A stretch of 62,089 nt of DNA from an uncultured Candidatus Saccharibacteria bacterium (GTDB taxonomy: Bacteria; Patescibacteriota; Minisyncoccia; Phycocordibacterales; UBA9973): contig CAZUQJ010000003.1 in NCBI GenBank assembly GCA_964622505.1, positions 1 to 62,089 of the forward strand, given 5' to 3'. Each line of letters begins with the position of its first letter. Position 1 is the first letter of the stretch. The translations under genes and the position numbers were made by a program. Of this stretch, positions 9,562 to 38,111 are shown piece by piece. The notes below the pieces were generated by a model. It was not told the DNA's origin, did no database searches, and saw only the letters and a list, made by a program, of their open reading frames with translations.

Positions 9562-9891
9562 CTAAGCAGAAAGTAAATGTATATCGTAGTATAGTGTATT
9601 AAAATACCCCCGATATAATATATTGTACTCTCCATACTCCTTTATTAAAGGAGAGATTAATTCCTTAGCTTCCTTTTGAACACCTAGATATTTAGCATAT
9701 TCAAGAATTTCAAAAATGGAATGTTTAGAAATTAAATGTAGTTGTTCCTCTTCGATTTCAATTGGCAATTCTAGTAACTCAAAATACTCTATTAAAGCTT
9801 TTTTCTTTATTAATGAGTTTTTCACTGTCCAGAATACGAAACAATTTAACTGATACAATGCTTGGTTTTTACTTCTTTTGATTCGTGACAT
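9562..9891 (-). CDS. hypothetical protein
   Basis: 109-aa ORF with its own terminator; no recognisable motif. Confidence 0.4.
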   Translation of the reverse strand: MSRIKRSKNQALYQLNCFVFWTVKNSLIKKKALIEYFELLELPIEIEEEQLHLISKHSIFEILEYAKYLGVQKEAKELISPLIKEYGEYNILYRGYFNTLYYDIHLLSA

Positions 9892-13330: not shown

Positions 13331-13433
13331 ATATGAAGTGTAAAACAGTATGGATTAAATATCAATTAAATTATAGTACACCATATAAAATCCTATTACG
13401 TCAAGTGTGTTTTTGTGGTAAAATTCTGCACAT

Positions 13434-14033: not shown

Positions 14034-14035
14034 AT

Positions 14036-15334
14036 ATGTCTGACAAAAAGAAAAAATCAAATAAAGAACCGATCCAATCAGTCAAAGGTATGCGCGACAT
14101 CCTTGATGAGCAATACTACAACTACCAAGGATTCTTTGAAAAAGCTCAAGAAATTGCAGTGTACTACGGCTTTAAACCAATAGAGGTACCTGTCGTCGAA
14201 CAAGAAGAATTGTTTGTCACCAGTATCGGTATCGGAACAGATGCAATTGATAAAGAAATGTACACCCTTAAAACAAAAGGTGGCGACCATCTGGCATTGC
14301 GCCCCGAGGGTACTGCGGGTGTCATGCGCGCATATATAGAGCACGGTATGCAAAACCTACCACAACCAGTGATGCTCTACTACTATGGTCCAATGTTCCG
14401 CCACGACAGTCCTCAGCGAGGCCGCTACCGTGATTTCCGTCAATTTGGTCTGGAGGTTATCGGTACAGAAAAAAGCATCGTTGACGCATTAGTTATAAAA
14501 ACCACAATGGTCATCCTCGAAGAATGTGGCGCACAAAACATGTCTGTAAATATAAATTCTATCGGGGACAAAGATTGCCGAGGCGCTTATATAAAAGAAC
14601 TTACCAATTATTACAAAAAGCATCTCAGTGACTTGGGGGCTATTGACCGCGAACGCTTGAAGACCAATCCCCTACGAATACTAGATTCCAAAGACCCAAA
14701 AGCAATCGAGATCAATGAAAACGCTCCGGACTCTATATCGTACCTATGTCATGATTGCAAAAAGCACTTCAAAGAAGTCTTGGAATACTTGGAAAAGATG
14801 GACATAGCCTATTCTATCAACAAGAATCTTGTACGAGGACTTTCATACTATACTCGCACCGTGTTCGAAATTATTGAAAACGAGGGCACAGACGGTCTAC
14901 CACCACTAACTATCGCAGGCGGAGGACGTTACGACTATTTGGCAAAAATGCTTGGAAGCAAAAAAGATGTTCCATCAATGGGCGTTTCCATCGGGGTTGA
15001 TCGAGTTGTCGAGAGCGCTTGGTGCGGAAAACTATGCCCACGTATAAGCAAGAAGCCAAAGATGTATTTTATTCAGCTTGGCTTTGATGCAAAATTAAAA
15101 TCACTGAATGTTATTGAGATATTGCGTAAAGCAAAAATTCCAATTGCCCAATCCCTTTCAAAAGACAGCCTTGGTATACAGCTCGCAGTCGCTGAGAAAT
15201 TGGGAGTAAAGTATGCATTGATCTTCGGTCAAAAGGAAGCTTTGGAGGACTCTGTTATCGTCCGCGATATGAACAATCGTTCTCAAGAAACTATCAAGCT
15301 CAATAAACTTTTAGAATATATCAAAGAACTATAA
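14036..15334 (+). CDS. hisS: histidine--tRNA ligase
   Basis: GMRD, LRPEGTA, FRHDSPQRGRYRDF class-II motifs. Confidence 0.95.
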   Translation: MSDKKKKSNKEPIQSVKGMRDILDEQYYNYQGFFEKAQEIAVYYGFKPIEVPVVEQEELFVTSIGIGTDAIDKEMYTLKTKGGDHLALRPEGTAGVMRAYIEHGMQNLPQPVMLYYYGPMFRHDSPQRGRYRDFRQFGLEVIGTEKSIVDALVIKTTMVILEECGAQNMSVNINSIGDKDCRGAYIKELTNYYKKHLSDLGAIDRERLKTNPLRILDSKDPKAIEINENAPDSISYLCHDCKKHFKEVLEYLEKMDIAYSINKNLVRGLSYYTRTVFEIIENEGTDGLPPLTIAGGGRYDYLAKMLGSKKDVPSMGVSIGVDRVVESAWCGKLCPRISKKPKMYFIQLGFDAKLKSLNVIEILRKAKIPIAQSLSKDSLGIQLAVAEKLGVKYALIFGQKEALEDSVIVRDMNNRSQETIKLNKLLEYIKEL

Positions 15335-15335
15335 T

Positions 15336-15878
15336 ATGGTAAAAATAATCCAAAATGGACATCCAACATTACGGACGAGAGCCTTGCCCGTCTTGATAAA
15401 AGATATTGGAAGCCCAAAAATAAAAAAGGTGCTCGCCGAGATGAAGAAAGCTCTATCTCTAGAAAGCGACGGTGTTGCTATTGCAGCTCCTCAGATCAAC
15501 GTCTCCTTGCGCATATTTGTTGTATCAGGCAAAGTTTTTGACGAAGGCTTCATCCATGGAGACCAACTCCAAGAATTAAGTAAAAATACAGATAAAGTAT
15601 TTATAAACCCAAAAATCCTCAAAATGTCGCGCGACAAGAAATTACTTTCTGAGGGTTGCCTCTCTGTACGTCCCATGTATGGCAAAGTGCGCCGTGCTAC
15701 TCGCACAACGCTCGAAGCTTATGATGAAAAAGGGGTCAAATTTGTAACAGAAGCAAGCTCTCTCCTTGCGCATATATTCCAACACGAGACAGATCATCTC
15801 GACGGGATATTGTTTATAGACAAAGCCAAAGATTTACACGAAGCAAGCCCCGAAGAAGAATTCAACAATGGAAAATAA
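15336..15878 (+). CDS. def: peptide deformylase
   Basis: GVAIAAPQI, EGCLS, HETDH. Confidence 0.95.
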   Translation: MVKIIQNGHPTLRTRALPVLIKDIGSPKIKKVLAEMKKALSLESDGVAIAAPQINVSLRIFVVSGKVFDEGFIHGDQLQELSKNTDKVFINPKILKMSRDKKLLSEGCLSVRPMYGKVRRATRTTLEAYDEKGVKFVTEASSLLAHIFQHETDHLDGILFIDKAKDLHEASPEEEFNNGK

Positions 15879-16692
15879 AAAATTAAAATTTGCCTTCTGG
15901 GGTACACCGGATGTAGCAAGCGTTACATTGCAAATTTTGATTGAAAATGGCTTAATCCCAAGTATAGTGATTACTAATCCAGATAGGAAACAAGGCCGGG
16001 GCTTAGAATTAACACAAAGTCCAGTAAAAATCTTGGCGGAAAAACACAATATCCCTGTTCTTACTCCAGAAAAAATTGATGATGATTTTATTAATAATTT
16101 TTCAAAATTAAATATTGACCTATCTATTGTAGTAGCGTACGGTTCAATCCTACCTGAAAATATTATCGATAGACCCGGATTTGGAACTTTGAATATTCAC
16201 TATTCTTTGCTTCCAAAATACAGGGGTGCCTCCCCTGTCGAATCAGCATTGCTCAATGGTGACAAAGAAACTGGGGTAACAATACAGAAAATGATAAAGA
16301 AATTAGATGCAGGAGATATTGTAGCAGTTGAAAAATTTACTATAAATGACACAATTTCGAAAAATGAATTACGAGGTGAGCTTATAAAGCTCGGTGTAAA
16401 TTTACTTATAAAAATACTTCCAGACTATATCGAAAATAAAATAACTCCAGTTCCACAAGACGAAAGTCTTGCAACCCATTGTGGCAAAATAAAGAAAGAA
16501 GATGGCTTGATAGATTTAAATGATGACCCAAAAGAAATATATAACAAATATCGCGCCTATAGTGGCTGGCCCGGCATCTACTTTTTTGAAAATGGTAAAA
16601 GAATCAAGATAACAAAAGCCCGCCTAGGAGATGGTAAATTTGTAATAGAGAGAGTAATCCCCGAAGGCAAAAAAGAAACTATTTGGATGTAA
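15868..16692 (+). CDS. fmt: methionyl-tRNA formyltransferase (short form)
   Basis: FWGTPDVA and HYSLLPKYRGASP; 274 aa. Confidence 0.9.
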   Translation: MENKKLKFAFWGTPDVASVTLQILIENGLIPSIVITNPDRKQGRGLELTQSPVKILAEKHNIPVLTPEKIDDDFINNFSKLNIDLSIVVAYGSILPENIIDRPGFGTLNIHYSLLPKYRGASPVESALLNGDKETGVTIQKMIKKLDAGDIVAVEKFTINDTISKNELRGELIKLGVNLLIKILPDYIENKITPVPQDESLATHCGKIKKEDGLIDLNDDPKEIYNKYRAYSGWPGIYFFENGKRIKITKARLGDGKFVIERVIPEGKKETIWM

Positions 16693-23995: not shown

Positions 23996-24025
23996 ATATG
24001 GAATGTCATTATAGCACAAGTTGCC

Positions 24026-24247
24026 CTACTTCTTTACAGACAGTAATTTGCTCGGGCTGTGGTGCCCGCTAAAAATTTTGACGGCTTTTGGGCTTATTTT
24101 ATATAGGAGAGCGACAAGTTCTATGACCCGAGTATTGGCCATATTGCGCTCGGCCTTTTCCTTCACATGTATTTCATACCTGTTCTCACCTACTTCCTTT
24201 ACAGATTCTTTTCGCGCCCCTGATACAACTTTTATTTTGATATACAT
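24026..24247 (-). CDS. DUF167 (YggU) family protein
   Basis: IKIKVVSGARKESV...EKAERNMANTRVIELVA...SGHHSPSKLL; ATG at 24247. Confidence 0.7.
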   Translation of the reverse strand: MYIKIKVVSGARKESVKEVGENRYEIHVKEKAERNMANTRVIELVALLYKISPKAVKIFSGHHSPSKLLSVKK

Positions 24248-24819
24248 ATTTTCTTCCTTCTTATTAAACAAATAATTATTAAGACAATATTGCAAGAACA
24301 TATCGTTACAAGATAGCTTAAAGTAAGAATATTGTATTCAGCTAGTGCGATGATTGCAAAAATATTACCTATAGAAAATAACACCCACGAAAGGACTGTT
24401 TCGCCCCATGGATCAGTCCATGATTTGCGATAGCTTGGGATATACCCCAGAGCATCAGCAAGACACACCATAAGTACTGCCAGGATCGGGTTGTGCAGTT
24501 GCCACCAGATCACTATCGCCGAGAGTGCCATAATCAGAATTATAGTATCACCGAGAGTTATCTTTTTTGTTCCATTTTTTAAAGAAAATAAAAATACAAA
24601 AATTACAAGCACTGCGCCAATAGAGAGACCGAGCGCCCCGAAACCCGCATTGCCATACCACATACCTGCCACAGCCACACCTTGGGTAATCGCCCAAATG
24701 AGCCAAGTATAGGTATGAGGTCTCGTCCGCTTCAGGAATATATCCCGAATATAAGGATAAAAAGCAATAATACCAATTATTACAGCCAACCCAGCAGATA
24801 TAGTTTTAAAAGTTTGCAT
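24232..24819 (-). CDS. hypothetical polytopic membrane protein
   Basis: 195 aa, about six TM helices. Confidence 0.6.
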   Translation of the reverse strand: MQTFKTISAGLAVIIGIIAFYPYIRDIFLKRTRPHTYTWLIWAITQGVAVAGMWYGNAGFGALGLSIGAVLVIFVFLFSLKNGTKKITLGDTIILIMALSAIVIWWQLHNPILAVLMVCLADALGYIPSYRKSWTDPWGETVLSWVLFSIGNIFAIIALAEYNILTLSYLVTICSCNIVLIIICLIRRKKICISK

Positions 24820-24915
24820 TATAGTTAAATTTCATATGGATTTCTCTGTAAAATATTATACCATGGCAACCATTGGGATTACTGTAGATTTTGCTTTTTA
24901 GAGCATTTTTTGCTA

Positions 24916-26574
24916 CTATAATCTAGTATTCCCCGGTAGCTCAGCGGCAGAGCAGAGAACTGTTAATTCTAAGGTCGTAGGTTCGATCCCTACCCGGGGA
25001 GCCAGATAAGATGATGGTATACCATTTTCACTACTTAAGCCTTTTGCGATAAAGGTTTTTTGTAGTTCGTAGGCTTCATTTAACTTAGGAATCCATTCAA
25101 GCAAATAATTACACGCTAAATTATAGTTTGGCTTTATTTCATAAACGTTTTGTGTAAAGTTCGTAAACAATTGAGAGAATAATAATCGTTTCTCGTCTAC
25201 TGTTGCTTTTTCGTAAATTTCTTTTGCTTTAAAAGCAAGGTCATGCATAACTAAACGAAGTTCTTGATACTCATCACTTTGAGAAGCAATTTTTTCAAGA
25301 GCAGATTCTAAAATACTTTCCTCTGTTTTACATTCAGCTATTTTTCTTTCGCAATATTCAAGGTCTACCTCTCTATTTATCTTTGCCTCAAAGTACTTAT
25401 CTTTTTGTTTTCGTATTCCCTGAAGTAAGCCGTTGAGCCTTTGGACTTCAATTTCTCTTAATTTAACTTGACCAGCATTTTCTTCTAGAATTATACTTTC
25501 AATCCATTTAAGTACAGCTTCGTTTTTAGGAGCTATTTTACCAAAGATGCTAGCTATCTGCTTTTCCGCTTCTTCTTGCTTAATATAGGTCTTTTTGGAG
25601 CAATAACGAGATTTTAAATGATTATTACAATGTCCATAGATAGTTCCTTTCTGTAATTCCCAACTTAATACACCACCACAACCATCACAGAAGATTTTAC
25701 TTTGAAAAAGATAATTATGCTTAGTAGAAAGAGAAGTTTTACCTCGTCTTCTTAATACACTGTTTACTTTTTCAAATAAATCTTTAGAAATTATAGGTTC
25801 ATGTTTGGCTGGATATATTTCACCACTCCATCTCATTTTTCCACAATAGAATGGGTCTAAAAGTAGTTCATATATTCTACCTTGATAAATCTTGCCTCCA
25901 TTTCTTGTACGAAGTCCGAGTTTATTCATTTCATCTTCTAATCCAATGACGGAATAGTTTCCTGTCGCATAGAGTTCAAACATTTTTTTTAAAAGCGGGG
26001 CAGTTTCATTATCAATGACATGTATTTTATGACCCTTTTCTCCGATAGTTTTATATCCAAGGGGTGGTTTTGTAGGCAACCATCCTTGAGCGATTTTTTC
26101 CTTTTGCCCTTTTTTAACTTCCTCGGATAAGTTGGAAATATATTTCTTTGCAAGAACAATTTCAATATCCCAACGAAATTTTTCATCAGATTTAGCATTC
26201 TTATGTATCACGAGGTTCTGTTTTACAAAATGGATTTGTCTTTCATCGTTAGCTTCAATCCAATCATTTGCTACCACAGCTTCTTTAAGGTTTCTGGTAA
26301 GGCGGTCCACTTTCTCACACAATAGTATTTGGATATTTTTCTTCCTCATATATTCCATCATTTCAGCAAAGGTTTTTCTTTGTTTTGCTCCACTAGCAGA
26401 TTCAGCTACTGAAAATACTTTTATTACAGTAAGACTTTTTCTTTGAGCATATTCCATAAGAAGCTTTTCTTGTGCTGGCAATGAATAGCCTGTATCTTCT
26501 TGTTCTTTAGAAGATACTCGACAATAAATTACAGCCTCATTTTTTATGTTTTTAATTTTTTCTTGTTTTTTCAT
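24916..26574 (-). CDS. large serine recombinase (integrase)
   Basis: AVIYCRVSSKEQ catalytic Ser region, recombinase domain, Cys-rich zinc ribbon (CDGCGG...HCNNH...C), coiled coil; the last ~30 codons are antisense to tRNA-Asn. Confidence 0.88.
   Translation of the reverse strand: MKKQEKIKNIKNEAVIYCRVSSKEQEDTGYSLPAQEKLLMEYAQRKSLTVIKVFSVAESASGAKQRKTFAEMMEYMRKKNIQILLCEKVDRLTRNLKEAVVANDWIEANDERQIHFVKQNLVIHKNAKSDEKFRWDIEIVLAKKYISNLSEEVKKGQKEKIAQGWLPTKPPLGYKTIGEKGHKIHVIDNETAPLLKKMFELYATGNYSVIGLEDEMNKLGLRTRNGGKIYQGRIYELLLDPFYCGKMRWSGEIYPAKHEPIISKDLFEKVNSVLRRRGKTSLSTKHNYLFQSKIFCDGCGGVLSWELQKGTIYGHCNNHLKSRYCSKKTYIKQEEAEKQIASIFGKIAPKNEAVLKWIESIILEENAGQVKLREIEVQRLNGLLQGIRKQKDKYFEAKINREVDLEYCERKIAECKTEESILESALEKIASQSDEYQELRLVMHDLAFKAKEIYEKATVDEKRLLFSQLFTNFTQNVYEIKPNYNLACNYLLEWIPKLNEAYELQKTFIAKGLSSENGIPSSYLAPRVGIEPTTLELTVLCSAAELPGNTRL
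24930..25004 (+). tRNA. tRNA-Asn(GTT) with encoded CCA
   Basis: TCCCCGG/CCGGGGA acceptor, GCTC/GAGC D-stem, anticodon loop CTGTTAA, T-arm GTAGG-TTCGATC-CCTAC, GCCA end; TATAAT at 24915..24920. Confidence 0.93.
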
Positions 26575-26846
26575 TTAATTAGATTTTTATTTATAAACTC
26601 ATTAAAACTTTCTTCATCTATCCTATATTCCTTGCCAAACTTATATGCTTTAATTTTTTTTGCTCTTATATAACGATATATTGTTATTATGTTTAACTTA
26701 AGTTTTTCAGCCAATTCTTCAGCTGTGTAAAAATTTCCAGTCGCTCTTTTTAATGCGTTTATTGTTATTGCCCCATAGTCAGTCTTACTTCTTTTTATGT
26801 TTGGGTTGCTAACAAAATTAAATAGGTTTGTTTTTTTACTTCTCAT
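26571..26846 (-). CDS. excisionase-family helix-turn-helix DNA-binding protein
   Basis: YTAEELAEKLKLNIITIYRYIRAKKIKAYKFGKEYRI; stop overlaps the recombinase start (ATGA). Confidence 0.7.
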   Translation of the reverse strand: MRSKKTNLFNFVSNPNIKRSKTDYGAITINALKRATGNFYTAEELAEKLKLNIITIYRYIRAKKIKAYKFGKEYRIDEESFNEFINKNLIK

Positions 26847-26897
26847 ATATTAATAATACCATACTGGACTTTTCTATACAAACAAATTTATCAACTT

Positions 26898-27086
26898 TTA
26901 CCACTCTATTGTTTTTAAGTTCTCACTGTCTTTTTTGATACGTTGATAGACCTTAAAGAGGTGTAAATAATAATTAGCGACCCCATTAGCAATTTCCTTA
27001 AGCTGGTCTTCCGAATAATCCTCAAAATTAGCTAGGTCTTTTTGGAGTTCAATAAATTCTTTTATCTGTTCTGGTTTGAGTTCCAT
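26898..27086 (-). CDS. hypothetical small protein
   Basis: 62-aa ORF in the same operon. Confidence 0.4.
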   Translation of the reverse strand: MELKPEQIKEFIELQKDLANFEDYSEDQLKEIANGVANYYLHLFKVYQRIKKDSENLKTIEW

Positions 27087-27090
27087 CTTT

Positions 27091-28452
27091 TTAAAACCCT
27101 AGCTCTTCAGCCGTTGGTGGCTCTATAATGTTCACGACGTTCACATCATTCACTTCTTCACCTTTAATATCCGCATCCGTGATGCCGTATCGTTCTTTCC
27201 AAAAATCCAGTCGTTCTCTGTTCCTTGCTAATTCAAGCACATACCCTCGTCTTGTTTTATAGGGTTTAAGTTGTAATTTTGATCTAAGATACCAGCCGAT
27301 TTTTCTTGGCGTTAGTTTTTCCTCAAAATCAAATAAATCTTGATTCACATATTCTGATATTTCACCAACTGTGATTTCTTTATTGCCTTTATCGTGTTCA
27401 AACTTAAAAATTGCAAAGATAATATCTGATTCTCTTGAAAGCCCTCTGTCTGCAATAAGCTCGGTGTTGTATTTTTGCACGAACTCTTTCAAAGACTGCT
27501 TCATTTCCTTAGATTCAATTATGGTCATAAGGGGAATTACAATCTGATGCAGTCGTGGGTGAATATCCTCAATAAGTGTCTCGTCGAAAACAAGTTCCTT
27601 TTGATAGTTTCTAAAACGCCACATAAGAAGTTTATTTCGGAGTATCAAGGCTTCTCCCCAAAACTCATCACTTAATCTTCTAGGAATATCCTCTCGTAGC
27701 TTTCCACGCCCCATTTCTTCCACCAAGAAACGGCTCTCAAGTGCTTTGTCGCTGAATGTCTCTCTGGTGGCTACTATCTTGGGAGAAAATACATCAAATG
27801 CTCGCATCTCCATTAAATCTTTTCCTTGCATTCTTAAAACAGACCCACCTTTTTGGTAGCCCATATTCAGTATTTTTATTATGTCCTGTGTCATATCACT
27901 GAAACGCAAATCCGCCTCATCAAGTATTAGAGTGCCTCTTACTTCGTCTAGAATGCGGAATATAGGGGCTGTGGTAGTTGCTCCGCCTGTGAATATAGGA
28001 CGATAGCATATAGAACCAATTACCTGTAAAAACCTGCTCTTACCGCTTCCAAAATCTCCTATAGCTCTTAAGTACGGTACTTCGCTGAAACGGTCATATA
28101 CCCAACTAAAAAGGGCGTAATATGAGGCAATCTGCTCAAACATAGGTGATATGTCTAAGTAGTGATGTATGAACTTTCTAATCTCTTCTAGAAGCTCTTC
28201 TTCTGTTACGTATTCAAGTGGCTCAGATGGTAGTAAAACTATCCCTTTACTTACAACATCACTTCTAGCATCAAGTGGAAATATTTCTTGTTCTCCTTGT
28301 TTTACTTTGTCTAGAAATTGAATTTCTCCATTTTTATATACTACAAATTGCGTCTGCTGTTTATTTTTATCGTAAACTGTTTCGGCAAGTTTATTATCTG
28401 ATACAAGGGATGCTTTTCTATTTTTCTTTACATTTTTATCTTCATTTTTCAT
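27091..28452 (-). CDS. P-loop NTPase, possibly replication or primase-associated
   Basis: Walker A GDFGSGKS and Walker B LILDEADL. Confidence 0.55.
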   Translation of the reverse strand: MKNEDKNVKKNRKASLVSDNKLAETVYDKNKQQTQFVVYKNGEIQFLDKVKQGEQEIFPLDARSDVVSKGIVLLPSEPLEYVTEEELLEEIRKFIHHYLDISPMFEQIASYYALFSWVYDRFSEVPYLRAIGDFGSGKSRFLQVIGSICYRPIFTGGATTTAPIFRILDEVRGTLILDEADLRFSDMTQDIIKILNMGYQKGGSVLRMQGKDLMEMRAFDVFSPKIVATRETFSDKALESRFLVEEMGRGKLREDIPRRLSDEFWGEALILRNKLLMWRFRNYQKELVFDETLIEDIHPRLHQIVIPLMTIIESKEMKQSLKEFVQKYNTELIADRGLSRESDIIFAIFKFEHDKGNKEITVGEISEYVNQDLFDFEEKLTPRKIGWYLRSKLQLKPYKTRRGYVLELARNRERLDFWKERYGITDADIKGEEVNDVNVVNIIEPPTAEELGF

Positions 28453-28479
28453 ATTTTTATTTCTATTTAATCTAATAAT

Positions 28480-28758
28480 TTAAAACTTCCTATTAAACCC
28501 GTTATCTTTCAGAAAAGACAATAACTGTCGGCGAGCTTCCTCGTATACATGCACTTGTACTAGCAAGTCTGGGTCATCCTTGTCGCCAAATTTATATTTT
28601 TCTTCAAGTTCTTCCAGTCTGGGGCTTTGGATAAACACGAACTCTTTAATTCCATTTCCTAATGAGTTTACATTCGCCAGCTTTTGACCTTTAGCGTATA
28701 GAAAGTTGCATTTCTGAAAATCGCTATCTCTAAAATACCTTTCATTTTTTATTTTCAT
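28480..28758 (-). CDS. hypothetical protein (DUF5659-like by recollection)
   Basis: 92 aa; the FRDSDFQKCNFLYAKGQKL...FVF pattern resembles small proteins common in CPR mobile elements. Confidence 0.4.
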   Translation of the reverse strand: MKIKNERYFRDSDFQKCNFLYAKGQKLANVNSLGNGIKEFVFIQSPRLEELEEKYKFGDKDDPDLLVQVHVYEEARRQLLSFLKDNGFNRKF

Positions 28759-28912
28759 CTTATTTCTTTATTACTATTAATTTTGTAGCTACATGACTGA
28801 GAATAGCCGAATAAAATAGTTAAAAATAGTTCAGCCTTAGTAGGAGTAAAATGAAAAAGACCCCTATTAAATAAGGGTGCTTTTGGGCTAGTTAACAAGA
28901 AGTTAAACTTAA

Positions 28913-29692
28913 CTAAACAAAAATGGGTTCAAAAAAATCCCTGTTGATTTCGTAGCCAGAATTATTATCATTTTTTATGACATCATAAACTAACTCTAAA
29001 TCAACCGTTAGTCTTTTATTAATTTTACCAATTTCTGTGCTCAAGTTTTGAGCACTTGTATTACTTAATTTTGAGCCACTAATTTTTTTACCTTGTGCAA
29101 GTTTTACTATATATTCAAAACGCTTATTTTTACCATTACCACCCCTAAAGGCACAACTCAAAGTTTTATTATTACAGTTTTTTATAATTTTTTTATCTTT
29201 CTTATCTATTTTTAAAATAATTTTACTACTAGTACTAAATTGGCTTTCTTTTTTAAAATTTTCCGTTGTTTTACTAGACTGAGTATTTTCACTATCAAAA
29301 AGGATTCCAATCTTCTTTAATGTGGTTGGGTTATTCACCGACAGCAACAAATTATTAGTGTGAAATTCATAATCATGGTCATCCTTATTTGTATACTTAT
29401 TCGTAGAAGTAATAAAATCTATTTTAGAAAATTCACGTAATTTGCTAACTAATATTTCAGCTTCTGTTAAACTAAAACAAGAACACTCTTGCTCAAGCAA
29501 CTTGAGGGGTACAGAGAAAACATAGCTAAGCGAAGAGGTGGATTCACCCCTCCCTACATGTAATTCCTCTCTACTGAGTATAATGTCTACAAATCTCTTA
29601 AGCTTGTTACGACTTTCCTCGGATAAAGACTTTATTTTTTCAACCTGAATCTCAGCATAAGATTCAGGGGTATTTTTTATCTTAATCTTCAT
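28913..29692 (-). CDS. hypothetical protein, possible C-terminal winged-helix
   Basis: 259 aa; C-terminal ...GKINKRL...NNSGYEI resembles the end of an OmpR-type wHTH; weak. Confidence 0.4.
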   Translation of the reverse strand: MKIKIKNTPESYAEIQVEKIKSLSEESRNKLKRFVDIILSREELHVGRGESTSSLSYVFSVPLKLLEQECSCFSLTEAEILVSKLREFSKIDFITSTNKYTNKDDHDYEFHTNNLLLSVNNPTTLKKIGILFDSENTQSSKTTENFKKESQFSTSSKIILKIDKKDKKIIKNCNNKTLSCAFRGGNGKNKRFEYIVKLAQGKKISGSKLSNTSAQNLSTEIGKINKRLTVDLELVYDVIKNDNNSGYEINRDFFEPIFV

Positions 29693-29834
29693 TTATATAT
29701 TCATTGTTAAATATGCACATTGTGAATGTTGTGAACATTGTACTAGCACATTTTACCATTTTATGGCATACTTTTAAAGTCAATTAAATACGAGACCTAA
29801 CCCTTAAATTTTAATATTTAAGGTATGGTCAAAT

Positions 29835-29936
29835 CCAGCTAAGGTGTTAAAAACCCATCATTGGGGTTACCTTAGCTGGTCATACAGGGAAACTTGTATT
29901 GGATGGCGAAAGCTGTCACCTAGTGGTGGGCTTTTT
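29835..29936 (+). ncRNA. candidate structured RNA (unknown class)
   Basis: 11-bp perfect stem CCAGCTAAGGT/ACCTTAGCTGG enclosing AACCC/GGGTT, then two GAAA-tetraloop hairpins (ATACAGG-GAAA-CTTGTAT; GATGGC-GAAA-GCTGTC with G-U pairs), then CACC-TAGT-GGTG and a T-run. Confidence 0.4.
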
Positions 29937-29957
29937 GCTACTAATTATCATACTAAG

Positions 29958-30578
29958 ATGAAAATAAATATGAAAAAATATCTAGCAGTTTTATTTCTAA
30001 TAGCATTTATTGTTCCCTCAGTTGCGTCTGCTTCTTGGTGGAATCCTTTTGGTTGGTCAAAGAATTCTAAAGAAAACATAAATGTTATCGAACCAACACT
30101 AGTTAAACAAACTGAGAAGTCTGATTCTAAGGTTGAAACCAAACCTAAAGAAGTCAAAGAAACTAAAGTTATTGAGAGAATAGTAGAAAAACCCGTCATC
30201 CAAAAAATAACTGTACAGGACCCAACACTTCAAGCTAAAATTGATTCTTTAATTTTAGAAAATAGTAATCTTAAAGCGGAGATAGAAAGGTTGAAAAAAG
30301 CAAACGAATCATTAAGTGCTGAGCCAAAATCAACAGTGCTTTCTAAATTTGCTTCGAAATGTTTAAACGTAAAAGAAGACATATTAGATTACAAAGAACA
30401 GATCGAAGAGATAGACGATAAGTATAATAATATTTACGAAGAAGATATGAATAGAAATCCAAAAAGAAATCCCGATACATATAGAAAAGTAGTTGATGGC
30501 AGGAAACAAAAAGAACTATCATCTCTTAAGTCTATTTTAAGTGGTGCCTTAGCTGATAAGGAATTATATTGCGATTAA
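29958..30578 (+). CDS. secreted coiled-coil protein
   Basis: ATG at 29958 gives the signal peptide MKINMKKYLAVLFLIAFIVPSVASA; the GTG extension from 29844 would translate the RNA structure. Confidence 0.55.
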   Translation: MKINMKKYLAVLFLIAFIVPSVASASWWNPFGWSKNSKENINVIEPTLVKQTEKSDSKVETKPKEVKETKVIERIVEKPVIQKITVQDPTLQAKIDSLILENSNLKAEIERLKKANESLSAEPKSTVLSKFASKCLNVKEDILDYKEQIEEIDDKYNNIYEEDMNRNPKRNPDTYRKVVDGRKQKELSSLKSILSGALADKELYCD

Positions 30579-30584
30579 AAATAT

Positions 30585-31118
30585 ATGGAAAATAAAAATT
30601 TTTGGTGGTATCGTCTAGCAATAATTATTTATATAATAATATATATTGTACTATTTTTAGCTGTAACTCTTGGTATTTTTTATGAAACTAAACCCTATGT
30701 GATATATAATATAAATAAAGAAAAATCGTATATTCAATGTAAAGTCGATGATTCTACCTTTGCGTTTAATCTAAATCCACAATTAACTATTATTTCATAT
30801 TTCGAAAAGCCAACGCTCGACAGTTATTCTGTTGATTGGGCAACTAAAGTTTGCTTGGAGCGTACTGTAACAAAATCAAATATACAGGAAGACCTTGAGT
30901 CATATAGATTATCTAAACAAACAAGAAATTTTACTGAGTATATTGAAGTCACAGAAGAAACACACGGTAGTTGGAAAGAAAACATAGTCTACACCCTAGT
31001 TTCAATGTTAGGCGTTTATTTTCTAATGTATATAATTTTTTCAATTTTTAATTGGATAGCATTTGGTGAAAGTTTTAAAAAACCTAAGTTACTTAAGATG
31101 TGGCAAGAAGAAGATTAA
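30585..31118 (+). CDS. hypothetical membrane protein (2 TM)
   Basis: 177 aa with N- and C-terminal TM helices. Confidence 0.5.
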   Translation: MENKNFWWYRLAIIIYIIIYIVLFLAVTLGIFYETKPYVIYNINKEKSYIQCKVDDSTFAFNLNPQLTIISYFEKPTLDSYSVDWATKVCLERTVTKSNIQEDLESYRLSKQTRNFTEYIEVTEETHGSWKENIVYTLVSMLGVYFLMYIIFSIFNWIAFGESFKKPKLLKMWQEED

Positions 31119-31191
31119 GGTTTTGTAAGCAGAAAACCCTATAAATCTTGTCATTTTTAACAAAAAGTTACTTTAGGTTGGCAATTTGTAC

Positions 31192-31197
31192 TATACT
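31192..31197 (+). promoter_or_regulatory. -10 box 6 nt upstream of the ATG (leaderless geometry)
   Basis: TATACT-tgaaag-ATG. Confidence 0.45.
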
Positions 31198-31203
31198 TGA
31201 AAG

Positions 31204-32802
31204 ATGTTTAAGAATGACAAAGGAGAAATAGTACTTCATTTAGATATGCGACTTGGACAAATTACTGGTGGTGAGCCAGTAGTGACGGAAGAACAACTAA
31301 AACAAGCCTTTAAAGCTTATAATTTAAAAGAGGCACTTCTAACTTTAGCTGAGTTGTCAAAGAACATTTTTAATGGAAACATTCCTCAACCATTTACAAT
31401 GATTGGTAAAACTAGCGTACAACACCCTGCTGGAACGTTCATTTCACAATTTACTATTGAGTATTTAGCAAATATTTTTCTTATATCTGGAGCTAATGAT
31501 TATAAAAGTGAGAGCATTAAAAGCAAAGATAATCTTCTGGGTCTTTTCAATATTTACAATAATTCTGTGATACATCAAGGTCTCATCGATGGTCAGTTGT
31601 CATCTTTATTAGTTCCTATGTATTTCGAACAAATCAAAGGTCAAGCTAGTGTTCAAGACCTTTTAGTTAGACAATGGATGATTTTTAGTGAGGTCAGAAA
31701 GCAAATAGGTAATGGAGATTTTGAAGACATTGATAGTACTATTTTACAGAGTACAAATCTTTGTGTCGAAGAAATCATAGGACTTTCCTTTACTATTTTT
31801 TCTTACCTTATACATAATCCGTTATTTAATATTGGCAATCTAGATGGACACAAAATTGAAAGCTTTAAAAATCTTGTAACAACAGAAAAGGTTAATCATT
31901 TTTTAAATTTATACTCGGCAACATATTCAGAGATTCGTGAATTAGACCAGAAATTAAATCCAAAAGATACAAAAGAGTACACAAAAACAAGATTCAATCC
32001 TCTCTGGAAAAAACCAATTCTACGTTTGGAAACAAATTTATTTCTTGCTCCTAGCTTAACTGCTTACACAACAGCGAGCTTTTATGGATTATTTTGGTGG
32101 TTTGATGATTATTATAGAAACCAATCCAAAAAAAGACAGATGGACTTTAGGAAGTATTTTGGTCTTCTTTTTGAGAACTACACTGGAGAGGTTCTTAAAG
32201 ATATATATGGAGAAGCCTCAGTAAGAAGACAAGTTAAATATGGTCCTTCAGGAAAAGAAATTGATTTTATTGATTGGACTGTTATACAAGAGAATAAAGT
32301 TTATCTATTTGAAGTTAAAGCTTATCAATTTCCCCTAGAGACACTTCAAAAAGGAAAGCCTGATGATGTTAGAAAAGAGGTAGTCAATAAAATTGTTGAA
32401 TCTATAAGGCAAATTTACCAAAGAACACTGGATATAGATATTTATGACGAACTCTCTGAATTTAGAGCTAAGAACATAATACCCATCGTAGTTTTTTATG
32501 ACATCCCTTTTGCATCTTCATCTATGTATAAAGACAATATCAGTAAAGCTCTTACTGATTTAAACCCCAAATACTCTGGAATTAAAGATTTTAGATATTA
32601 CTTAATCGGCATTAGTGAATTAGAAGACTTTTATTATTGCTCTGACAACATAGTAATAGAAGATATTTTTGAAACTATAAAAGATAATCCAGCGACAGGA
32701 TTTAACTCAGAAGTTTCTAATAACTTCAAGGACAAGACCAGAAAGAATTTTCTTGATAGAAATTTTGACAGGTATCTAGACAACTTAGTGCCTGAATTAT
32801 AA
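31204..32802 (+). CDS. predicted PD-(D/E)xK-fold nuclease with large unknown N-terminal domain
   Basis: 532 aa; C-terminal GKEIDFIDWTVIQENKVYLFEVKAYQF fits a D...ExK restriction-endonuclease-like core. Confidence 0.5.
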   Translation: MFKNDKGEIVLHLDMRLGQITGGEPVVTEEQLKQAFKAYNLKEALLTLAELSKNIFNGNIPQPFTMIGKTSVQHPAGTFISQFTIEYLANIFLISGANDYKSESIKSKDNLLGLFNIYNNSVIHQGLIDGQLSSLLVPMYFEQIKGQASVQDLLVRQWMIFSEVRKQIGNGDFEDIDSTILQSTNLCVEEIIGLSFTIFSYLIHNPLFNIGNLDGHKIESFKNLVTTEKVNHFLNLYSATYSEIRELDQKLNPKDTKEYTKTRFNPLWKKPILRLETNLFLAPSLTAYTTASFYGLFWWFDDYYRNQSKKRQMDFRKYFGLLFENYTGEVLKDIYGEASVRRQVKYGPSGKEIDFIDWTVIQENKVYLFEVKAYQFPLETLQKGKPDDVRKEVVNKIVESIRQIYQRTLDIDIYDELSEFRAKNIIPIVVFYDIPFASSSMYKDNISKALTDLNPKYSGIKDFRYYLIGISELEDFYYCSDNIVIEDIFETIKDNPATGFNSEVSNNFKDKTRKNFLDRNFDRYLDNLVPEL

Positions 32803-33837
32803 TGATTCCAATTTATTTAAAATTGCTCCCTTTGCTAACTTTTTCAAGAAATACCAAGTAGGTATCAGGAAAAAATATGTGTCTTTGAATTTTAAGCCTT
32901 CAGCACCAATAATGTCGTGTATATCAATTTCATCATCCTTTTGCCATCCTGTTTTCGGCCTATTAAATCGAGCAAAAGACATTCCCAGAACGGGACTTAT
33001 ATAGGCTGTACCAGAATCATCTTCTACTCCATAACTATCTTTAACTACACTAGGAAAAGGAAATCCCTGATGAACAAATTTACTTCTATATTGATAAGCA
33101 CTGAAAAAACAAGAGAAAACTAGTTTGTCTGCTTCATTAAACGCAGACATCTCCTTTGCACATCTCCAGCGTTCTTTATTGGCTTTAGTTAAACAAGAAT
33201 CAAATAAAGTCACTCCTTTTTCTAGCCTCTCTCTATAAACTTCCATTGCTTTTAACTTGTCATATACTACCTTATTTAGTTTTGGAGAAATTTTACTTGC
33301 AAATGTAGCAAAATCCCAGCTACCCTCTGCTCCACTAAGTGCATCAATAATTCTCATTAGGCTTAGGTAACTGTCAGCATAGAAATTAGGATATAAAAGA
33401 CGAGCATTGTTATACTCACTAATCAAATATTGAATTCTCATAGCTTCTACTTCTTTTTGCTTATTTCCTGACTGAAAATTTGAATCAATAGTAGTACCTA
33501 TCTTTTCAAATAGCTCTAGATTAAAGTCGGACTGAGAAACCTTCCTAATGGACTGAGCGGGTATCATTTTTGTGCCGAAATAAAAGCCATGTCCTACGGT
33601 TAAGCGTTTCTTTTTCTGTATACCAATATCTAGAACAAATCCAAGTGTAGATTCAGGGTCAAAGAACCCTGTTGGAGTATCTTTTTCTTGGTCAATACGT
33701 CCATATTTAGCATATTCAGCTAAAATTACAAGCCCATCATCTGACCTCATCATTTTTAACTGCCCAAACTTTTGGCTTAGGGCAATATGTCCATCAATAT
33801 TAAAATCAGTCAGTTCCCAAGATTCTAATTCATCCAT
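32797..33837 (-). CDS. HEPN-domain protein, ApeA-like architecture
   Basis: 346 aa; beta-rich N-terminal part, helical C-terminal part with Rx4H motif YRSKFVHQG. Confidence 0.5.
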   Translation of the reverse strand: MDELESWELTDFNIDGHIALSQKFGQLKMMRSDDGLVILAEYAKYGRIDQEKDTPTGFFDPESTLGFVLDIGIQKKKRLTVGHGFYFGTKMIPAQSIRKVSQSDFNLELFEKIGTTIDSNFQSGNKQKEVEAMRIQYLISEYNNARLLYPNFYADSYLSLMRIIDALSGAEGSWDFATFASKISPKLNKVVYDKLKAMEVYRERLEKGVTLFDSCLTKANKERWRCAKEMSAFNEADKLVFSCFFSAYQYRSKFVHQGFPFPSVVKDSYGVEDDSGTAYISPVLGMSFARFNRPKTGWQKDDEIDIHDIIGAEGLKFKDTYFFLIPTWYFLKKLAKGAILNKLESL

Positions 33838-33843
33838 TTTTTA

Positions 33844-33852
33844 ATTATAGCA
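33844..33852 (-). promoter_or_regulatory. extended -10 promoter, leaderless geometry
   Basis: Minus strand reads TGCTATAAT-taaaaa-ATG. Confidence 0.55.
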
Positions 33853-33929
33853 CCCCTTGACACCTAATGCATGTATACTATTTTGAGGTATTTGTACAAT
33901 TTATAAAAAGGTCTATTATATAGGTATAT

Positions 33930-34598
33930 ATGAAAATTAAAGAAAAACTAAACAAAATAAAGTCCTATATCTCAAATACTAAATTTGGGGTTTTCCTTGT
34001 GGTAGTTTTAATCATCCTGAGCGCACTTTTTTTGTTATCTGAAAATAGAGATGGAGAATGTTCTAAGGAGTATAAAATACAAAGAAAATATTTAAGTAGA
34101 GACACATCTTCTGTGGGGTTTACCTTTAATAGGTATGAAACCGCTAATTCAAGTCCTGAAATATTAAAAAATTTAGACTTAAATTCTAGTAAAACAGCAA
34201 AAGAATTTAGGTCTAGTATAGATTCTCAACTTAAAGATAAAGTTGATTTTGATGGCAAATATACCGTAGTGGGTGTCGGCATGACGGGCTGGGATGGACC
34301 TGTGTGGATAGTAGACAGATTGGACGGCAAGGCTTATGAATTTCCATATCACCACTATTATTTTTCTTTAGCTTACTCCAAGGATAGCAATTTGATTGTT
34401 GTAAATTCTAAAGATAAAATAAAAGAAATGCATAAAATCCATGGTTGTTCTTATCTTAATATTACGGGAGATGGGATTAGTGGAGCTTATGATTTGAGAC
34501 CTCACTATTTTCTATGGGAAGATGGTCAGTTTAAATATTTAGGACCCGATAATTATATTCCTAGTAAAAATACTTTTTGGGAAGGTTATTTTAAATAA
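33930..34598 (+). CDS. hypothetical membrane-anchored protein
   Basis: 222 aa with an N-terminal TM helix. Confidence 0.5.
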   Translation: MKIKEKLNKIKSYISNTKFGVFLVVVLIILSALFLLSENRDGECSKEYKIQRKYLSRDTSSVGFTFNRYETANSSPEILKNLDLNSSKTAKEFRSSIDSQLKDKVDFDGKYTVVGVGMTGWDGPVWIVDRLDGKAYEFPYHHYYFSLAYSKDSNLIVVNSKDKIKEMHKIHGCSYLNITGDGISGAYDLRPHYFLWEDGQFKYLGPDNYIPSKNTFWEGYFK

Positions 34599-34671
34599 TA
34601 ATCAAAATTAAATATTTTTTATGATTTCAAAATAGTACAAAAAGACCAAAAGAAAACGAACTACCTTTCGC

Positions 34672-35085
34672 CTATTCCAAATCCCTATTTAATATCTGTT
34701 CTTTTAAGTTCTGATCATAGTTCTTAATGTTTTGTTGGAACTTTGGCTCAAAGAAGAAGTTATAGACGTTTTCTTTAGGTTTTTCTATATCTTCATTTTT
34801 ATAATGCCCCTTTAGTTTAAGCCCTGTTTCAAGGTATTTGTGTCTTACTGCATAATCTGGCTCTATTCCTTCTTCCGTTTTCTTTCCTGCTTCTAGTCCC
34901 TCATCAAGCACTTTAGCCAACTTATCGTCAGAAATAAACTTCTCCATCAATTCTTTCCACCCATTACTTTGAGTTAACTTTTCTGTTTTCTGTGGGTTAG
35001 CATAAATACCCTCCATAGCTTTACTTATAACTCCCCCCGTTTCCCCCAATCTTTCAAACACTTTTTTCTGTTTTATGGTAGGCAT
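34672..35085 (-). CDS. hypothetical protein (faint terminase-small-subunit-like N-terminus)
   Basis: 137 aa; KQKKVFERLGETGGVISKAM and DYAVRHKYLETGLKLKG; weak. Confidence 0.4.
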   Translation of the reverse strand: MPTIKQKKVFERLGETGGVISKAMEGIYANPQKTEKLTQSNGWKELMEKFISDDKLAKVLDEGLEAGKKTEEGIEPDYAVRHKYLETGLKLKGHYKNEDIEKPKENVYNFFFEPKFQQNIKNYDQNLKEQILNRDLE

Positions 35086-35190
35086 AGTAATTTAAGTAAT
35101 AGCTAATAATTGCCGTATCTGCATTAAAGAAACCGAAGGATAAGGAAATACCTCTTCCCAATTTGTGTTCGTAAGTTGTAGTTTCCAGCG

Positions 35191-35234
35191 AGCATAATAA
35201 AAAAGCACCAGTAATGGTGCTTTTTTATTATGCT
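35191..35234. repeat. perfect 20-bp-stem hairpin (bidirectional terminator-like insulator)
   Basis: AGCATAATAAAAAAGCACCA-GTAA-TGGTGCTTTTTTATTATGCT. Confidence 0.8.
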
Positions 35235-35274
35235 CCCCGGAGCAAGCAAACTGCTTTGCTTGCATGTAGGGAGC
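35232..35274. repeat. nested imperfect palindrome, possible recombinase site
   Basis: GCTCCC-cgga-GCAAGCAAA-ctgc-TTTGCTTGC-atgta-GGGAGC. Confidence 0.5.
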
Positions 35275-35367
35275 GAAAAGCTTTTCTGTATTTTTGAAAA
35301 TCTTTGATTTTTAAAAATTAGAAAAGGTATACTGTTCCTGTAAGGAAAGATACCCTACCCACGGAGC

Positions 35368-35396
35368 TTGACGTTTAACACTATTTATGCTATTAT
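35368..35396 (+). promoter_or_regulatory. promoter, copy 1 of a duplicated promoter-leader module
   Basis: TTGACG, 17 nt, TATTAT; about 65 nt similar to 36253..36321. Confidence 0.55.
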
Positions 35397-35734
35397 ATAA
35401 AGATAGTAGTTCTTTAATATTTGGTTATCTTGTTTTGTATATTGCTCTCTGGACATCAATTATTGGTTTCTATAGAGCAATAATACAAAACAATTTTAAA
35501 ATCATAAAAATGGAACAGCAAGAAAAAAGCCCAAGGGCACAACTCCACACTCTCGTTGGTAAGGAGATGAGATTCGAAAAACGCGCAGATATGAATGGAG
35601 GTACTGTGCCTCATCACGTGGAAGAGCATAAACAAGCTCAGAAGGAACTTGAAGAGTTTCTTCTCAAAAATCCATCAATGAGGGAGCATTTGGAAACGGT
35701 TCAAGACCATTTCTTTAAACAGTTGTATGAATAA
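35387..35734 (+). CDS. hypothetical protein (start uncertain; alternative ATG at 35510)
   Basis: The longest ORF starts inside the predicted promoter; if the promoter is real the product is the 74-aa MEQQEKSPR... form. Confidence 0.45.
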   Translation: MLLYKDSSSLIFGYLVLYIALWTSIIGFYRAIIQNNFKIIKMEQQEKSPRAQLHTLVGKEMRFEKRADMNGGTVPHHVEEHKQAQKELEEFLLKNPSMREHLETVQDHFFKQLYE

Positions 35735-35736
35735 CA

Positions 35737-35771
35737 AAACCCACCAGTAGTAACCTACTTCGGTGGGTTTT
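35737..35771 (+). terminator. intrinsic terminator
   Basis: AAAACCCACC...GGTGGGTTTT. Confidence 0.75.
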
Positions 35772-35848
35772 CTATTTATTCTTGTGTTATATAACTCTTC
35801 GAACATCATCCCAAGTTCGGAGCAATATAATAGTTTGAATCATAACGT

Positions 35849-36211
35849 ATGCTTGAAAGTTTATTATTAAATAGCTATAATACCCTCGTGAGTGTAATTA
35901 AAAATCAAGACAGATATCATATAATTACGGCAATTATTCTAATACTAGTACTAATAAGTATTGGAACAGTCGCATTTCATATTCTAGAGGGTTGGGATTT
36001 TGCTACCAGCTTTTACTTTTCTGTAGCTACTTTGACTACTGTTGGGTATGGTGACATACACCCCACTACAGATCTTTCTCGTATTGTTGTTGCAATATAT
36101 ATACTCATAGGTGTTGGTACAATGTTGGCGTCTCTAACAGTAATAGCCACAGATCGTATCAACAAAACAGCAGGCCGAATGCGTGGTATTGCAGATAAAA
36201 AACAACAGTAA
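35849..36211 (+). CDS. two-TM potassium channel (KcsA-like pore only)
   Basis: Selectivity filter TLTTVGYGD between two TM helices; 120 aa. Confidence 0.85.
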   Translation: MLESLLLNSYNTLVSVIKNQDRYHIITAIILILVLISIGTVAFHILEGWDFATSFYFSVATLTTVGYGDIHPTTDLSRIVVAIYILIGVGTMLASLTVIATDRINKTAGRMRGIADKKQQ

Positions 36212-36252
36212 GAATCCTTGCCACCACTCGCAAATACTCCAAAGTGTGTAGT

Positions 36253-36281
36253 TTGACTTATAACACTATTTATGCTACAGT
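36253..36281 (+). promoter_or_regulatory. promoter, copy 2 of the duplicated module
   Basis: TTGACT, 17 nt, TACAGT; shares TAACACTATTTATGCTA with copy 1. Confidence 0.5.
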
Positions 36282-36364
36282 ATAAAAATAGGATAGTTCT
36301 TGGATATTGGGATTTTAAATTGTTTCCAGAGATTCTTCTGGAGTTTGTGGTAACAATTTAAAAT

Positions 36365-36718
36365 ATGAACAAAAAAACAAACCTAGCACTCGGAGTTATT
36401 TTTGTAACTTCAGTATTAATCTTTACTTATTCCTACCTAAACCATTTGTATAGAATGAGCCGACTGAACTTATCCTTCATAGAAGGAATATTGATGCTCG
36501 TTTTGGCAGTAATAGTGTTAATGATTCCAGGAAATTGGAGCGCAAAAATCATTGCGGCGATTGCTTCGCTGGTTGTGGTGGTAACTACAAAACCTGAATT
36601 TGATAGTGCATTTTTTACTGCATTGCATTCTGCATGCTATGCAGTAACACTAATCTCACTTTGTGTTCTTCATCACGATACACAAAAAAATCTAAAATCG
36701 AAAGACCCATCTCAATGA
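36365..36718 (+). CDS. hypothetical membrane protein
   Basis: 117 aa, about four TM helices. Confidence 0.55.
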   Translation: MNKKTNLALGVIFVTSVLIFTYSYLNHLYRMSRLNLSFIEGILMLVLAVIVLMIPGNWSAKIIAAIASLVVVVTTKPEFDSAFFTALHSACYAVTLISLCVLHHDTQKNLKSKDPSQ

Positions 36719-36785
36719 TAGGCCTTTTCATAAATATTCAACCAAACATCATCTCACGTTCGGAGTGTTGGGATAGTCCCATAAA

Positions 36786-38111
36786 TTATTTCAATATAAG
36801 ATCATCCTTGCCTGCACCGACAGATACGATAGAGATCGGTAATCCAACTTGAGCTTCGATGAATTCTAGATACCCCCTCGCTTGTTCGGGCAAATCTTCG
36901 TATTTTTTTATACCCTCAGATTTTTGGCCTTGCCAGTTTTTGAAATCTGCATACACCGGTACTACACTATCGCTCTTTGCCACTAGGTCGAAATCTATCG
37001 TATTTTTTTCTACACCATTTACCATGTAATGTGTACAAATTTTAAAACCCTCTTTTACATAGTCAAATATGTCGAGCTTGGTCAGCACAAGCGATGTCGC
37101 ACCATTTAGTGCTATAGCATAGCGGAGTGTCGGCAGGTCGAGCCATGCTACGTTGCGAGGGCGTCCTGTACGTGCACCACGCTCGTGAGCTACTTCTTGC
37201 AAGTATGCTTCGAGTGCCTCTGGTACGCGTGTTGCAAGCGGTCCACCACCCACGCGTGTTGTATATGCTTTGAGCACTCCATAGACATTACGTACGTACT
37301 GCGCCCCTACTCCGAGCTCGGCTGGAGCGGCACTGGCAAGAGTACGAGATGAAGTCACAAAAGGATACGTCCCAAAAGAGATATCGAGCATAGTTGCTTG
37401 CGCACCTTCTGCAAGAATCTTTTTGCCATTTTTTAAATATTCATTTACAAAGGCAGATGTGTTCACAAAATTATTTTGATATTGCTTGATGTATTCAATG
37501 CACTCAAAAAATTCCTCTGTCATTTTTGCCAGTTCCTCTTTGCAATCATAGTTATATAATTCCTTTAAAATTTTGCAATGCTTGGCAACTTGCTTATCGT
37601 AAATTTCTCTAAAATTAGGTTGCAATACGTCCCCAATTCGTACACCTTCACGGCCTGCCTTGTCACGATAAACTGGGCAAATTCCCATTTGGGTCGAGCC
37701 TATCTTGTTGTCACCTTTTGACAATTCTTCTGCTTTGTCGAGTAACTGATGTGTAGGTAGTATTACATGTACCCCTTCTCCAATATAAAAGTTCTTTTTT
37801 ACATCTGCACCATATTTAATAACTTTTTCAATTTCCTCTTTTAATAAAATTGGATTCACTACCATGCCATCTGCACAAAGTGAAGCTCCTGAGAATATTC
37901 CACAAGAAATACTATTAAGGACTACACTTTCGTTGTTGATATAAATTGTGTGTCCTGCATTTGGTCCTCCGTTGAATCGGCATACCAAGTCATAACTGTC
38001 TGCTAGGTATTGTACTATTTTCCCCTTGCCTTCGTCGCCATAATAGAGGCCAATGAGCACGTCGAGCGTCCCAGTAGTATTATTTCTGATCTCTTTATTT
38101 TTTAATTCCAT
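36786..38111 (-). CDS. purA: adenylosuccinate synthetase
   Basis: GDEGKGK, GPNAGHT, GTTRVGGGP-type motifs. Confidence 0.95.
   Translation of the reverse strand: MELKNKEIRNNTTGTLDVLIGLYYGDEGKGKIVQYLADSYDLVCRFNGGPNAGHTIYINNESVVLNSISCGIFSGASLCADGMVVNPILLKEEIEKVIKYGADVKKNFYIGEGVHVILPTHQLLDKAEELSKGDNKIGSTQMGICPVYRDKAGREGVRIGDVLQPNFREIYDKQVAKHCKILKELYNYDCKEELAKMTEEFFECIEYIKQYQNNFVNTSAFVNEYLKNGKKILAEGAQATMLDISFGTYPFVTSSRTLASAAPAELGVGAQYVRNVYGVLKAYTTRVGGGPLATRVPEALEAYLQEVAHERGARTGRPRNVAWLDLPTLRYAIALNGATSLVLTKLDIFDYVKEGFKICTHYMVNGVEKNTIDFDLVAKSDSVVPVYADFKNWQGQKSEGIKKYEDLPEQARGYLEFIEAQVGLPISIVSVGAGKDDLILK

Follow-up and report, generated by a model that had tools for sequence, protein, structure and literature searches.

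The 62,089-nucleotide stretch from position 1 of contig CAZUQJ010000003.1 of an uncultured Candidatus Saccharibacteria bacterium (assembly GCA_964622505.1), referred to below as the window, carries two large convergent genes inside an integrative mobile element. Gene A (31204..32802, + strand) encodes a 532-aa predicted nuclease of a GapS1-like PD-(D/E)xK type and may be an anti-phage sensor-effector that acts as a single protein. Gene B (32797..33837, - strand) encodes a 346-aa member of a rare unnamed family, a candidate HEPN-like RNase. In our view A and B are probably independent single-gene defence candidates that lie tail to tail as cargo of a serine-recombinase/excisionase element at a tRNA-Asn gene, a defence role being plausible for A and for B. 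A preliminary description of this DNA had joined the two genes into a two-gene DNase plus RNase module. Judged from their homologs, they appear to be two autonomous modules that were juxtaposed once in a recent ancestor and not a co-evolving system. The 'DNase plus RNase pair' would then be a false lead, a neighbourhood accident of one shallow clade.

This reading is carried by the distribution of the two families and by the extent of their DNA homology. No A-family or A-like open reading frame (ORF) lies within 10 kb of B in any of 12 genome loci, where the B homologs are 38-54% identical to the window protein. A further sample of twelve B homologs was looked up on their contigs, and the contexts with downstream sequence were compared. 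Over about 19 distinct B contexts, a GapS1-like neighbour is present in three and an A-like gene is absent in about 16. From the A side, B is found in one of 30 metagenome loci (L024; loci are given L numbers where they have to be told apart), and B is nearby in 2 of about 24 A-family contexts. No conserved neighbour gene of A was found among the 30 metagenome loci. The two-gene module is thus not borne out, as the A and B families almost never co-occur, the few co-occurrences fall in one shallow clade, and the DNA homology runs per ORF. By blastn, homology of the window to B loci extends only from 32777/32812 to 33848/33853, and the promoter-like box TGCTATAAT lies inside the homology block ending at 33848-33853. 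Homology to L013, the locus of the closest A homolog (71% identity), covers only 31188..32807, apart from a second stretch within the upstream gene; L013 and the window have this upstream gene in common but differ in the downstream gene. Homology is therefore confined to each ORF with about 15 nt of its own promoter, which argues that A and B each travel as a cassette of their own. Either gene would move between genomes as a single-gene unit.

The two converging ORFs have the coordinates and lengths originally given for them. Their ends share 6 nt, the palindrome TTATAA (32797..32802), as had been described, but the two stop codons do not share the same bases. The palindrome holds a Leu codon plus a stop on each strand, so that the TAA of either gene covers the last Leu codon (TTA) of the other and the stops are adjacent. 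The overlap is unique to the window genome, with a 5-nt gap at the corresponding place in L043 and a 244-aa gene between the two in L047. No terminator between A and B was found in a generic promoter/terminator scan.

Each gene has a -10-like box exactly 6 nt from its ATG, as the preliminary description had it: TATACT upstream of A (31192..31197, + strand) and the extended -10 box upstream of B (33844..33852, - strand). About ten B homologs carry TGnTATAAT or a close variant (with a TAGAAT core, or with the TG missing) 6-7 nt from the ATG, and in the A homologs of L013, L014, L047 and L016 a -10-like box is spaced from the ATG as it is in the window. Because they recur at the same distance in homologs, the boxes are taken to be conserved and not due to chance. 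Neither was called by the generic sigma-70 scan, and both are without a -35 element. Since each box lies 6 nt from the ATG, leaderless units are proposed: A and B are probably each a leaderless or near-leaderless transcription unit with its own promoter.

Gene A and the GapS1 superfamily

A and B had been described as orphans. In fact A has 38 relatives, the window copy included, and B has 89; the genes are unannotated instead. A had also been said to show no recognisable motif over about 330 aa, and its pairing with B to be known from no named system. Its residues 136-492 align with positions 90-438 of the 455-position NCBIfam model NF047931 (antiphage_GapS1) with an E-value of 1.4e-16 and a score of 60.4 bits. 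Pfam gives a weak NERD match only, and a PDB sequence search with the A profile found no real match.

The catalytic core of A, D357 ... E370-x-K372 (FIDW ... FEVK; 32272..32319, + strand), has its D, E and K residues invariant in 36 homologs. The D...ExK motif, GKEIDFIDWTVIQENKVYLFEVKAYQF, is present at residues 350-376; it does not end the protein as had been stated, since about 155 aa follow. The AlphaFold2 (AF2) model of A has a predicted local distance difference test (pLDDT) score of 89.7 and a predicted TM-score (pTM) of 0.90. Its structural neighbours by Foldseek are PD-(D/E)xK defence nucleases, with Upx (PDB 9wuf, E 6.9e-6) at the top, followed by Can2/Card1, Nt.BspD6I and LmuA. The PD-(D/E)xK fold proposed for A is supported by both the invariant residues and the fold matches.

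Given the NF047931 alignment, the invariant D/E/K residues and the nuclease fold matches, A is by sequence comparison a distant full-length relative in the GapS1/GAPS1 superfamily and not an orphan. By the same comparison, this superfamily, known from work in Vibrio and E. coli, extends, highly diverged, into Patescibacteria on serine-recombinase elements. By analogy and homology, the helical N-terminal two-thirds of A would sense a phage protein, and the C-terminal PD-(D/E)xK domain, with D357, E370 and K372, would cut nucleic acid and so stop growth or infection.

It should be mentioned that GapS1-like genes also cluster with each other. At L032, two different GapS1-superfamily genes (3597-5264, + strand; 5275-7062, - strand) are convergent and adjacent, with a serine recombinase 2 kb away.

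Gene B and its HEPN-type motif

None of the 89 B homologs is annotated and none has a Pfam domain. An exhaustive profile search of 1.84 billion representative proteins returned 67 at E <= 0.001, with no bridge from the B family to any named family; the most distant members are also without a Pfam domain. A word-indexed profile search at E <= 10 gave no further relatives. Searches of Pfam, PADLOC, NCBIfam and PHROGs with B and all 80 family members gave no significant match. On these searches, the B family is small and sharply bounded.

The motif YRSKFVHQG (Rx4H), already recognised in the preliminary description, is present in B, and 80 homologs all keep its R251 and H256. The family consensus reads YQYRNKFVHxG; in place of its N after R251, B of the window has S. 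The putative HEPN-type active-site motif R251-S-K-F-V-H256 (consensus RNKFVH) is encoded at 33070..33087 on the - strand. Other invariant residues are Y142/N143, D70/G72 and D302/H307. In HEPN domains, R-x4-6-H, usually with N, D or H after the R, sits where core helix 3 ends and the loop to helix 4 begins (Anantharaman et al. 2013, PMC3710099). In the AF2 model of B (pLDDT 92.1), R251 closes the helix formed by residues 235-253 and H256 lies just after it, followed by a beta-hairpin insertion and two more helices. The beta strands of the model fall within residues 4-90, in an N-terminal beta domain of about residues 1-100, and residues 107-346 are helical. Hence the helical C-terminal half that had been described stands, but the beta-rich part is only the first 100 or so residues and not a half.

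With the family consensus, the top Pfam match is PF18730 (HEPN_Cthe2314), at 19-20.5 bits against a gathering threshold of 27.1 and with E-values from 5e-4 to 2e-3. The alignment ends on the RNxxxH motif, and 2 of the 80 members match PF18730 individually. Run against PDB sequences at E <= 10, the B profile retrieved spurious coiled-coil and Fab matches only. PADLOC gave single weak CARF_HEPN matches and nothing further. The motif of B and its predicted position would agree with HEPN, but neither the profile searches nor the fold searches gave a significant HEPN match. The ApeA architecture proposed for B is rejected, as B matches neither Pfam HEPN_Apea nor any PADLOC model (one for ApeA among them, if PADLOC has it), the architecture is different and B has 346 aa against about 580 aa in ApeA. 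Our best guess, unproven, is that B is a HEPN-like RNase. The RNxxxH at the helix end would make it a metal-independent one, and the small beta-rich N-terminal domain may be a sensor or regulator.

We hold it unlikely that B has neither a nuclease nor a defence-effector function, its R/H pair instead binding a ligand or belonging to some other enzyme, and that it is an accessory gene of mobile elements with an unrelated role (for example in immunity, anti-defence or regulation). B is without a fold or profile match to any HEPN, its invariant polar residues D70, N143, D302 and H307 lie outside the HEPN signature, and one B homolog is found downstream of an RHS toxin-immunity array and others among housekeeping genes. 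Such a role would leave aside that the RNxxxH motif is invariant and lies in the model at a helix end, as would fit HEPN, and that the best Pfam match of B is a HEPN family whose alignment ends on this motif. The patchy cross-phylum spread of B (several lineages of the candidate phyla radiation, CPR, together with Binatia and Hyphomicrobiaceae) and its behaviour as a single-gene cassette are also typical of conflict genes.

The surroundings of B homologs are qualitatively defence-island-like. Among the neighbours are a type I HsdR with a SocA/Panacea gene, Fic, an RHS/SpvB toxin with Imm26, BpuJI, a DUF4011-helicase-MTES_1575 nuclease (restriction endonuclease) and SMC-like ATPases. Truncated or split B homologs (fragments of 97-170 aa) are found in L010, L011 and L012, which suggests decaying copies in some genomes.

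Pairing and the carrying element

Several points weigh against the reading of A and B as independent defence genes. At 60.4 bits, A falls below the curated 320-bit cutoff of NF047931 and is outside the curated subfamily. For B, the proposed enzymatic nature draws on one motif and a sub-threshold PF18730 match, and the PF18730 alignment lies partly on a K/E-rich helix, which coiled-coil families match as well. Foldseek found no structural neighbour of the B model in PDB or BFVD. About half of the sampled B neighbourhoods are not obviously defence-related, some having ordinary genes. Lastly, three close B homologs lie beside three different GapS1-like genes, always convergent, which is more regular than random placement would be.

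The last of these points bears directly on the pairing. In L047 and L048 (B 89% identical), B faces two convergent genes, of which the nearer encodes 244 aa and the farther is of the A family, an arrangement found again in L024. In L043-46 (B 82%), the convergent gene encodes a 513-aa protein that is only distantly A-like. All three B partners match NF047931: window A, the 544-aa protein of L047 (E 1e-22, 80.6 bits) and the 513-aa protein of L043 (E 2e-18, 66.6 bits), the latter two also being under the 320-bit cutoff. Nothing A-like is found beside B in L049 (84%), L051 (73%), L053 (66%), L055 (63%), L057 (68%), L058 (64%) or L060 (61%). The three paired contexts lie in one shallow clade, with B 84-90% identical, to which the unpaired L049 also belongs.

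These contexts could be read as a facultative two-component system in which A, or any GapS1-like protein, is a fast-evolving sensor-nuclease with B as its conserved HEPN-like partner. Within the clade a GapS1-superfamily gene is convergent with B in 3 of 4 contexts, the other flank of B differs in each of the three, and the A/B-type genes are tightly packed (-6 and +5 nt). We nevertheless consider such a system improbable. The three paired cases are in one clade and so count as one evolutionary event; L049 of the same clade has no partner; the partner is absent in 15 of 15 more distant B contexts, and 29 of the 30 A-family metagenome loci are without B. Co-evolution is made less likely by identities of under 25-54% among the partners against 82-89% among the B proteins. 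The unrelated 244-aa gene intervenes in L047 and L024, A and B are convergent with separate promoters and hence form no operon, and GAPS1 is sufficient alone.

As three different GapS1-superfamily proteins are convergent with near-identical B genes, B may also be thought of as the conserved effector of a modular system, its partner slot being filled by interchangeable, fast-diverging GapS1-like sensor nucleases. This is quite improbable in our estimate; if true, CPR bacteria would have a HEPN-like/PD-(D/E)xK partnership of a new kind. A module of the toxin-antitoxin or addiction type, in which one protein neutralises the other and the island is stabilised, would suit two tightly packed convergent genes on a mobile element, and is rejected as hardly credible, because both proteins are large with catalytic-type motifs of their own, both genes are mostly found singly with no operon structure, and neither matches any toxin-antitoxin family.

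A weaker version of the modular proposal, which needs no pairing, would have B as the founder of a new family, with a novel fold, of single-gene RNase defence cassettes that are leaderless. The B family combines a confident predicted structure that has no PDB or BFVD neighbour with an invariant HEPN-type motif, and if B proves to be a phage-restricting RNase, single-gene defence would gain a new family and the HEPN-like folds a new variant. Little has been charted of the anti-phage repertoire of CPR bacteria, which are uncultured organisms with tiny genomes.

The location of A and B inside an integrative mobile element, as originally described, is well supported, because a recombinase and an excisionase adjoin a tRNA gene in a stretch of deviant composition. 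The integration module (24916..26846, - strand) abuts tRNA-Asn and consists of a large serine recombinase (24916..26574, - strand; Pfam Resolvase, Recombinase and Zn_ribbon_recom) and a 91-aa excisionase-like gene (26571..26846, - strand; PHROG 66/4370). The tRNA-Asn gene (24930..25004, + strand) is overlapped by the 3' end of the recombinase ORF. The GC content is 0.30-0.33 across 25-36 kb and 0.37-0.47 in the flanks, and the housekeeping genes purA and IMPDH begin at 36.8 kb. No att repeats were found, there being no direct repeat of at least 16 nt that involves the tRNA end within 24000-37500.

The named homologs of A and B belong to Paceibacterota, Taylorbacteria, Saccharibacteria, Peregrinibacteria and Buchananbacteria, besides Binatia, Brocadiales and Hyphomicrobiaceae; going by these homologs, a CPR/Patescibacteria origin of the window is the most likely. 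Both families repeatedly have serine recombinases nearby (cluster c2), and homologs of the excisionase-like gene (cluster c8) recur in L027 and L033. In L005, a Patescibacteria contig, the B homolog has a tRNA-Asn-like sequence (9489-9564, 85% identical) some 420 nt upstream and a BpuJI-type restriction endonuclease 1.4 kb downstream; this arrangement suggests that tRNA-Asn is a recurrent island site. The 244-aa gene that separates B from the A-family gene (L047, 3559-4293, - strand; also L048 and L024) matches phrog_19960 (E 4.5e-24) and phrog_7075, which are phage protein families of unknown function. A LexA-like repressor fused to an adenine DNA methyltransferase (L025, 4792-6279, - strand; TIGR00498, E 9e-58, and PRK11524) belongs to a cluster (c4, also in L002, L008 and L028) that recurs near A- and B-family genes on CPR contigs. 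L002, from Buchananbacteria, also encodes a 1054-aa protein (12970-16134, - strand) with Major Vault Protein shoulder and repeat domains (PF11978, E 5e-24).

Within the island of the window, the LOOT RNA (Rfam RF03000) is matched over its full length at 29794-29917 on the + strand, scoring 81.6 bits where the gathering score is 46.4. This RNA is just upstream of the gene at 29844..30578 and overlaps its annotated start. In L013, too, a homolog of this gene stands ahead of the A-family gene. A direct repeat of 42 nt, 83% identical between its copies at 35365-35406 and 36250-36291, carries a promoter-like TTGAC(G/T)...TGCTA(TTAT/CAGT)AT, and each copy is directly upstream of a small membrane-protein ORF (35387.., 36365..).

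Comparison with known systems

GAPS1 (GMT-island anti-phage system 1) of Vibrio parahaemolyticus (WP_005477165.1) is a single-protein system in which alanine substitutions of D313 and K328 abolish defence; its trigger is the T7 capsid protein, and the outcome is dormancy (bioRxiv 10.1101/2023.03.28.534373). A resembles GAPS1 in having its PD-(D/E)xK core toward the C-terminus, with a D-to-K spacing of 15 residues in both, and in being a stand-alone single gene carried as mobile-element cargo. A differs by about 100 extra N-terminal residues. It is also found in Patescibacteria and other uncultured lineages on a serine-recombinase element, whereas GAPS1 is found in gamma-proteobacteria on a GMT island.

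Upx (PDB 9wuf), the best structural neighbour of the A model (Foldseek probability 1.00, E 6.9e-6), is a single-protein dual PD-(D/E)xK anti-phage nuclease of 1212 aa that is activated by a phage protein (PMC13099982). The likeness to A lies in a C-terminal PD-(D/E)xK core buttressed by helical domains. In contrast to A, Upx has two nuclease domains, and the TM-scores between the two are 0.31 and 0.17, with 14% identity and no sequence-level match.

B shares with HEPN RNases (Cthe_2314-like PF18730, HepT) the invariant R-x4-H and a polar N after the R in its family. In the model of B the motif lies at the C-terminal end of a helix and in the loop that follows, as would fit a HEPN domain, and the helical inserts would fall where HEPN domains commonly carry them (PMC3710099). 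Unlike these RNases, B has no Ex3[KR] motif and no Foldseek match to a solved or viral HEPN, and it has the extra invariant residues D70, N143, D302 and H307.

ApeA is a single-gene HEPN anti-phage anticodon nuclease that forms decamers; its chain of about 580 aa is mainly alpha-helical and is divided into N-terminal, Mid and split-HEPN domains (bioRxiv 10.64898/2026.01.26.701840). B, with 346 aa and only a beta domain of about 100 aa before its helical part, is different in build. It is like ApeA in being a single gene with a non-HEPN N-terminal part, a C-terminal R...H motif and insertions after the motif-bearing helix. By a possible analogy, B and ApeA may follow a common logic of a sensor pocket joined to a HEPN domain.

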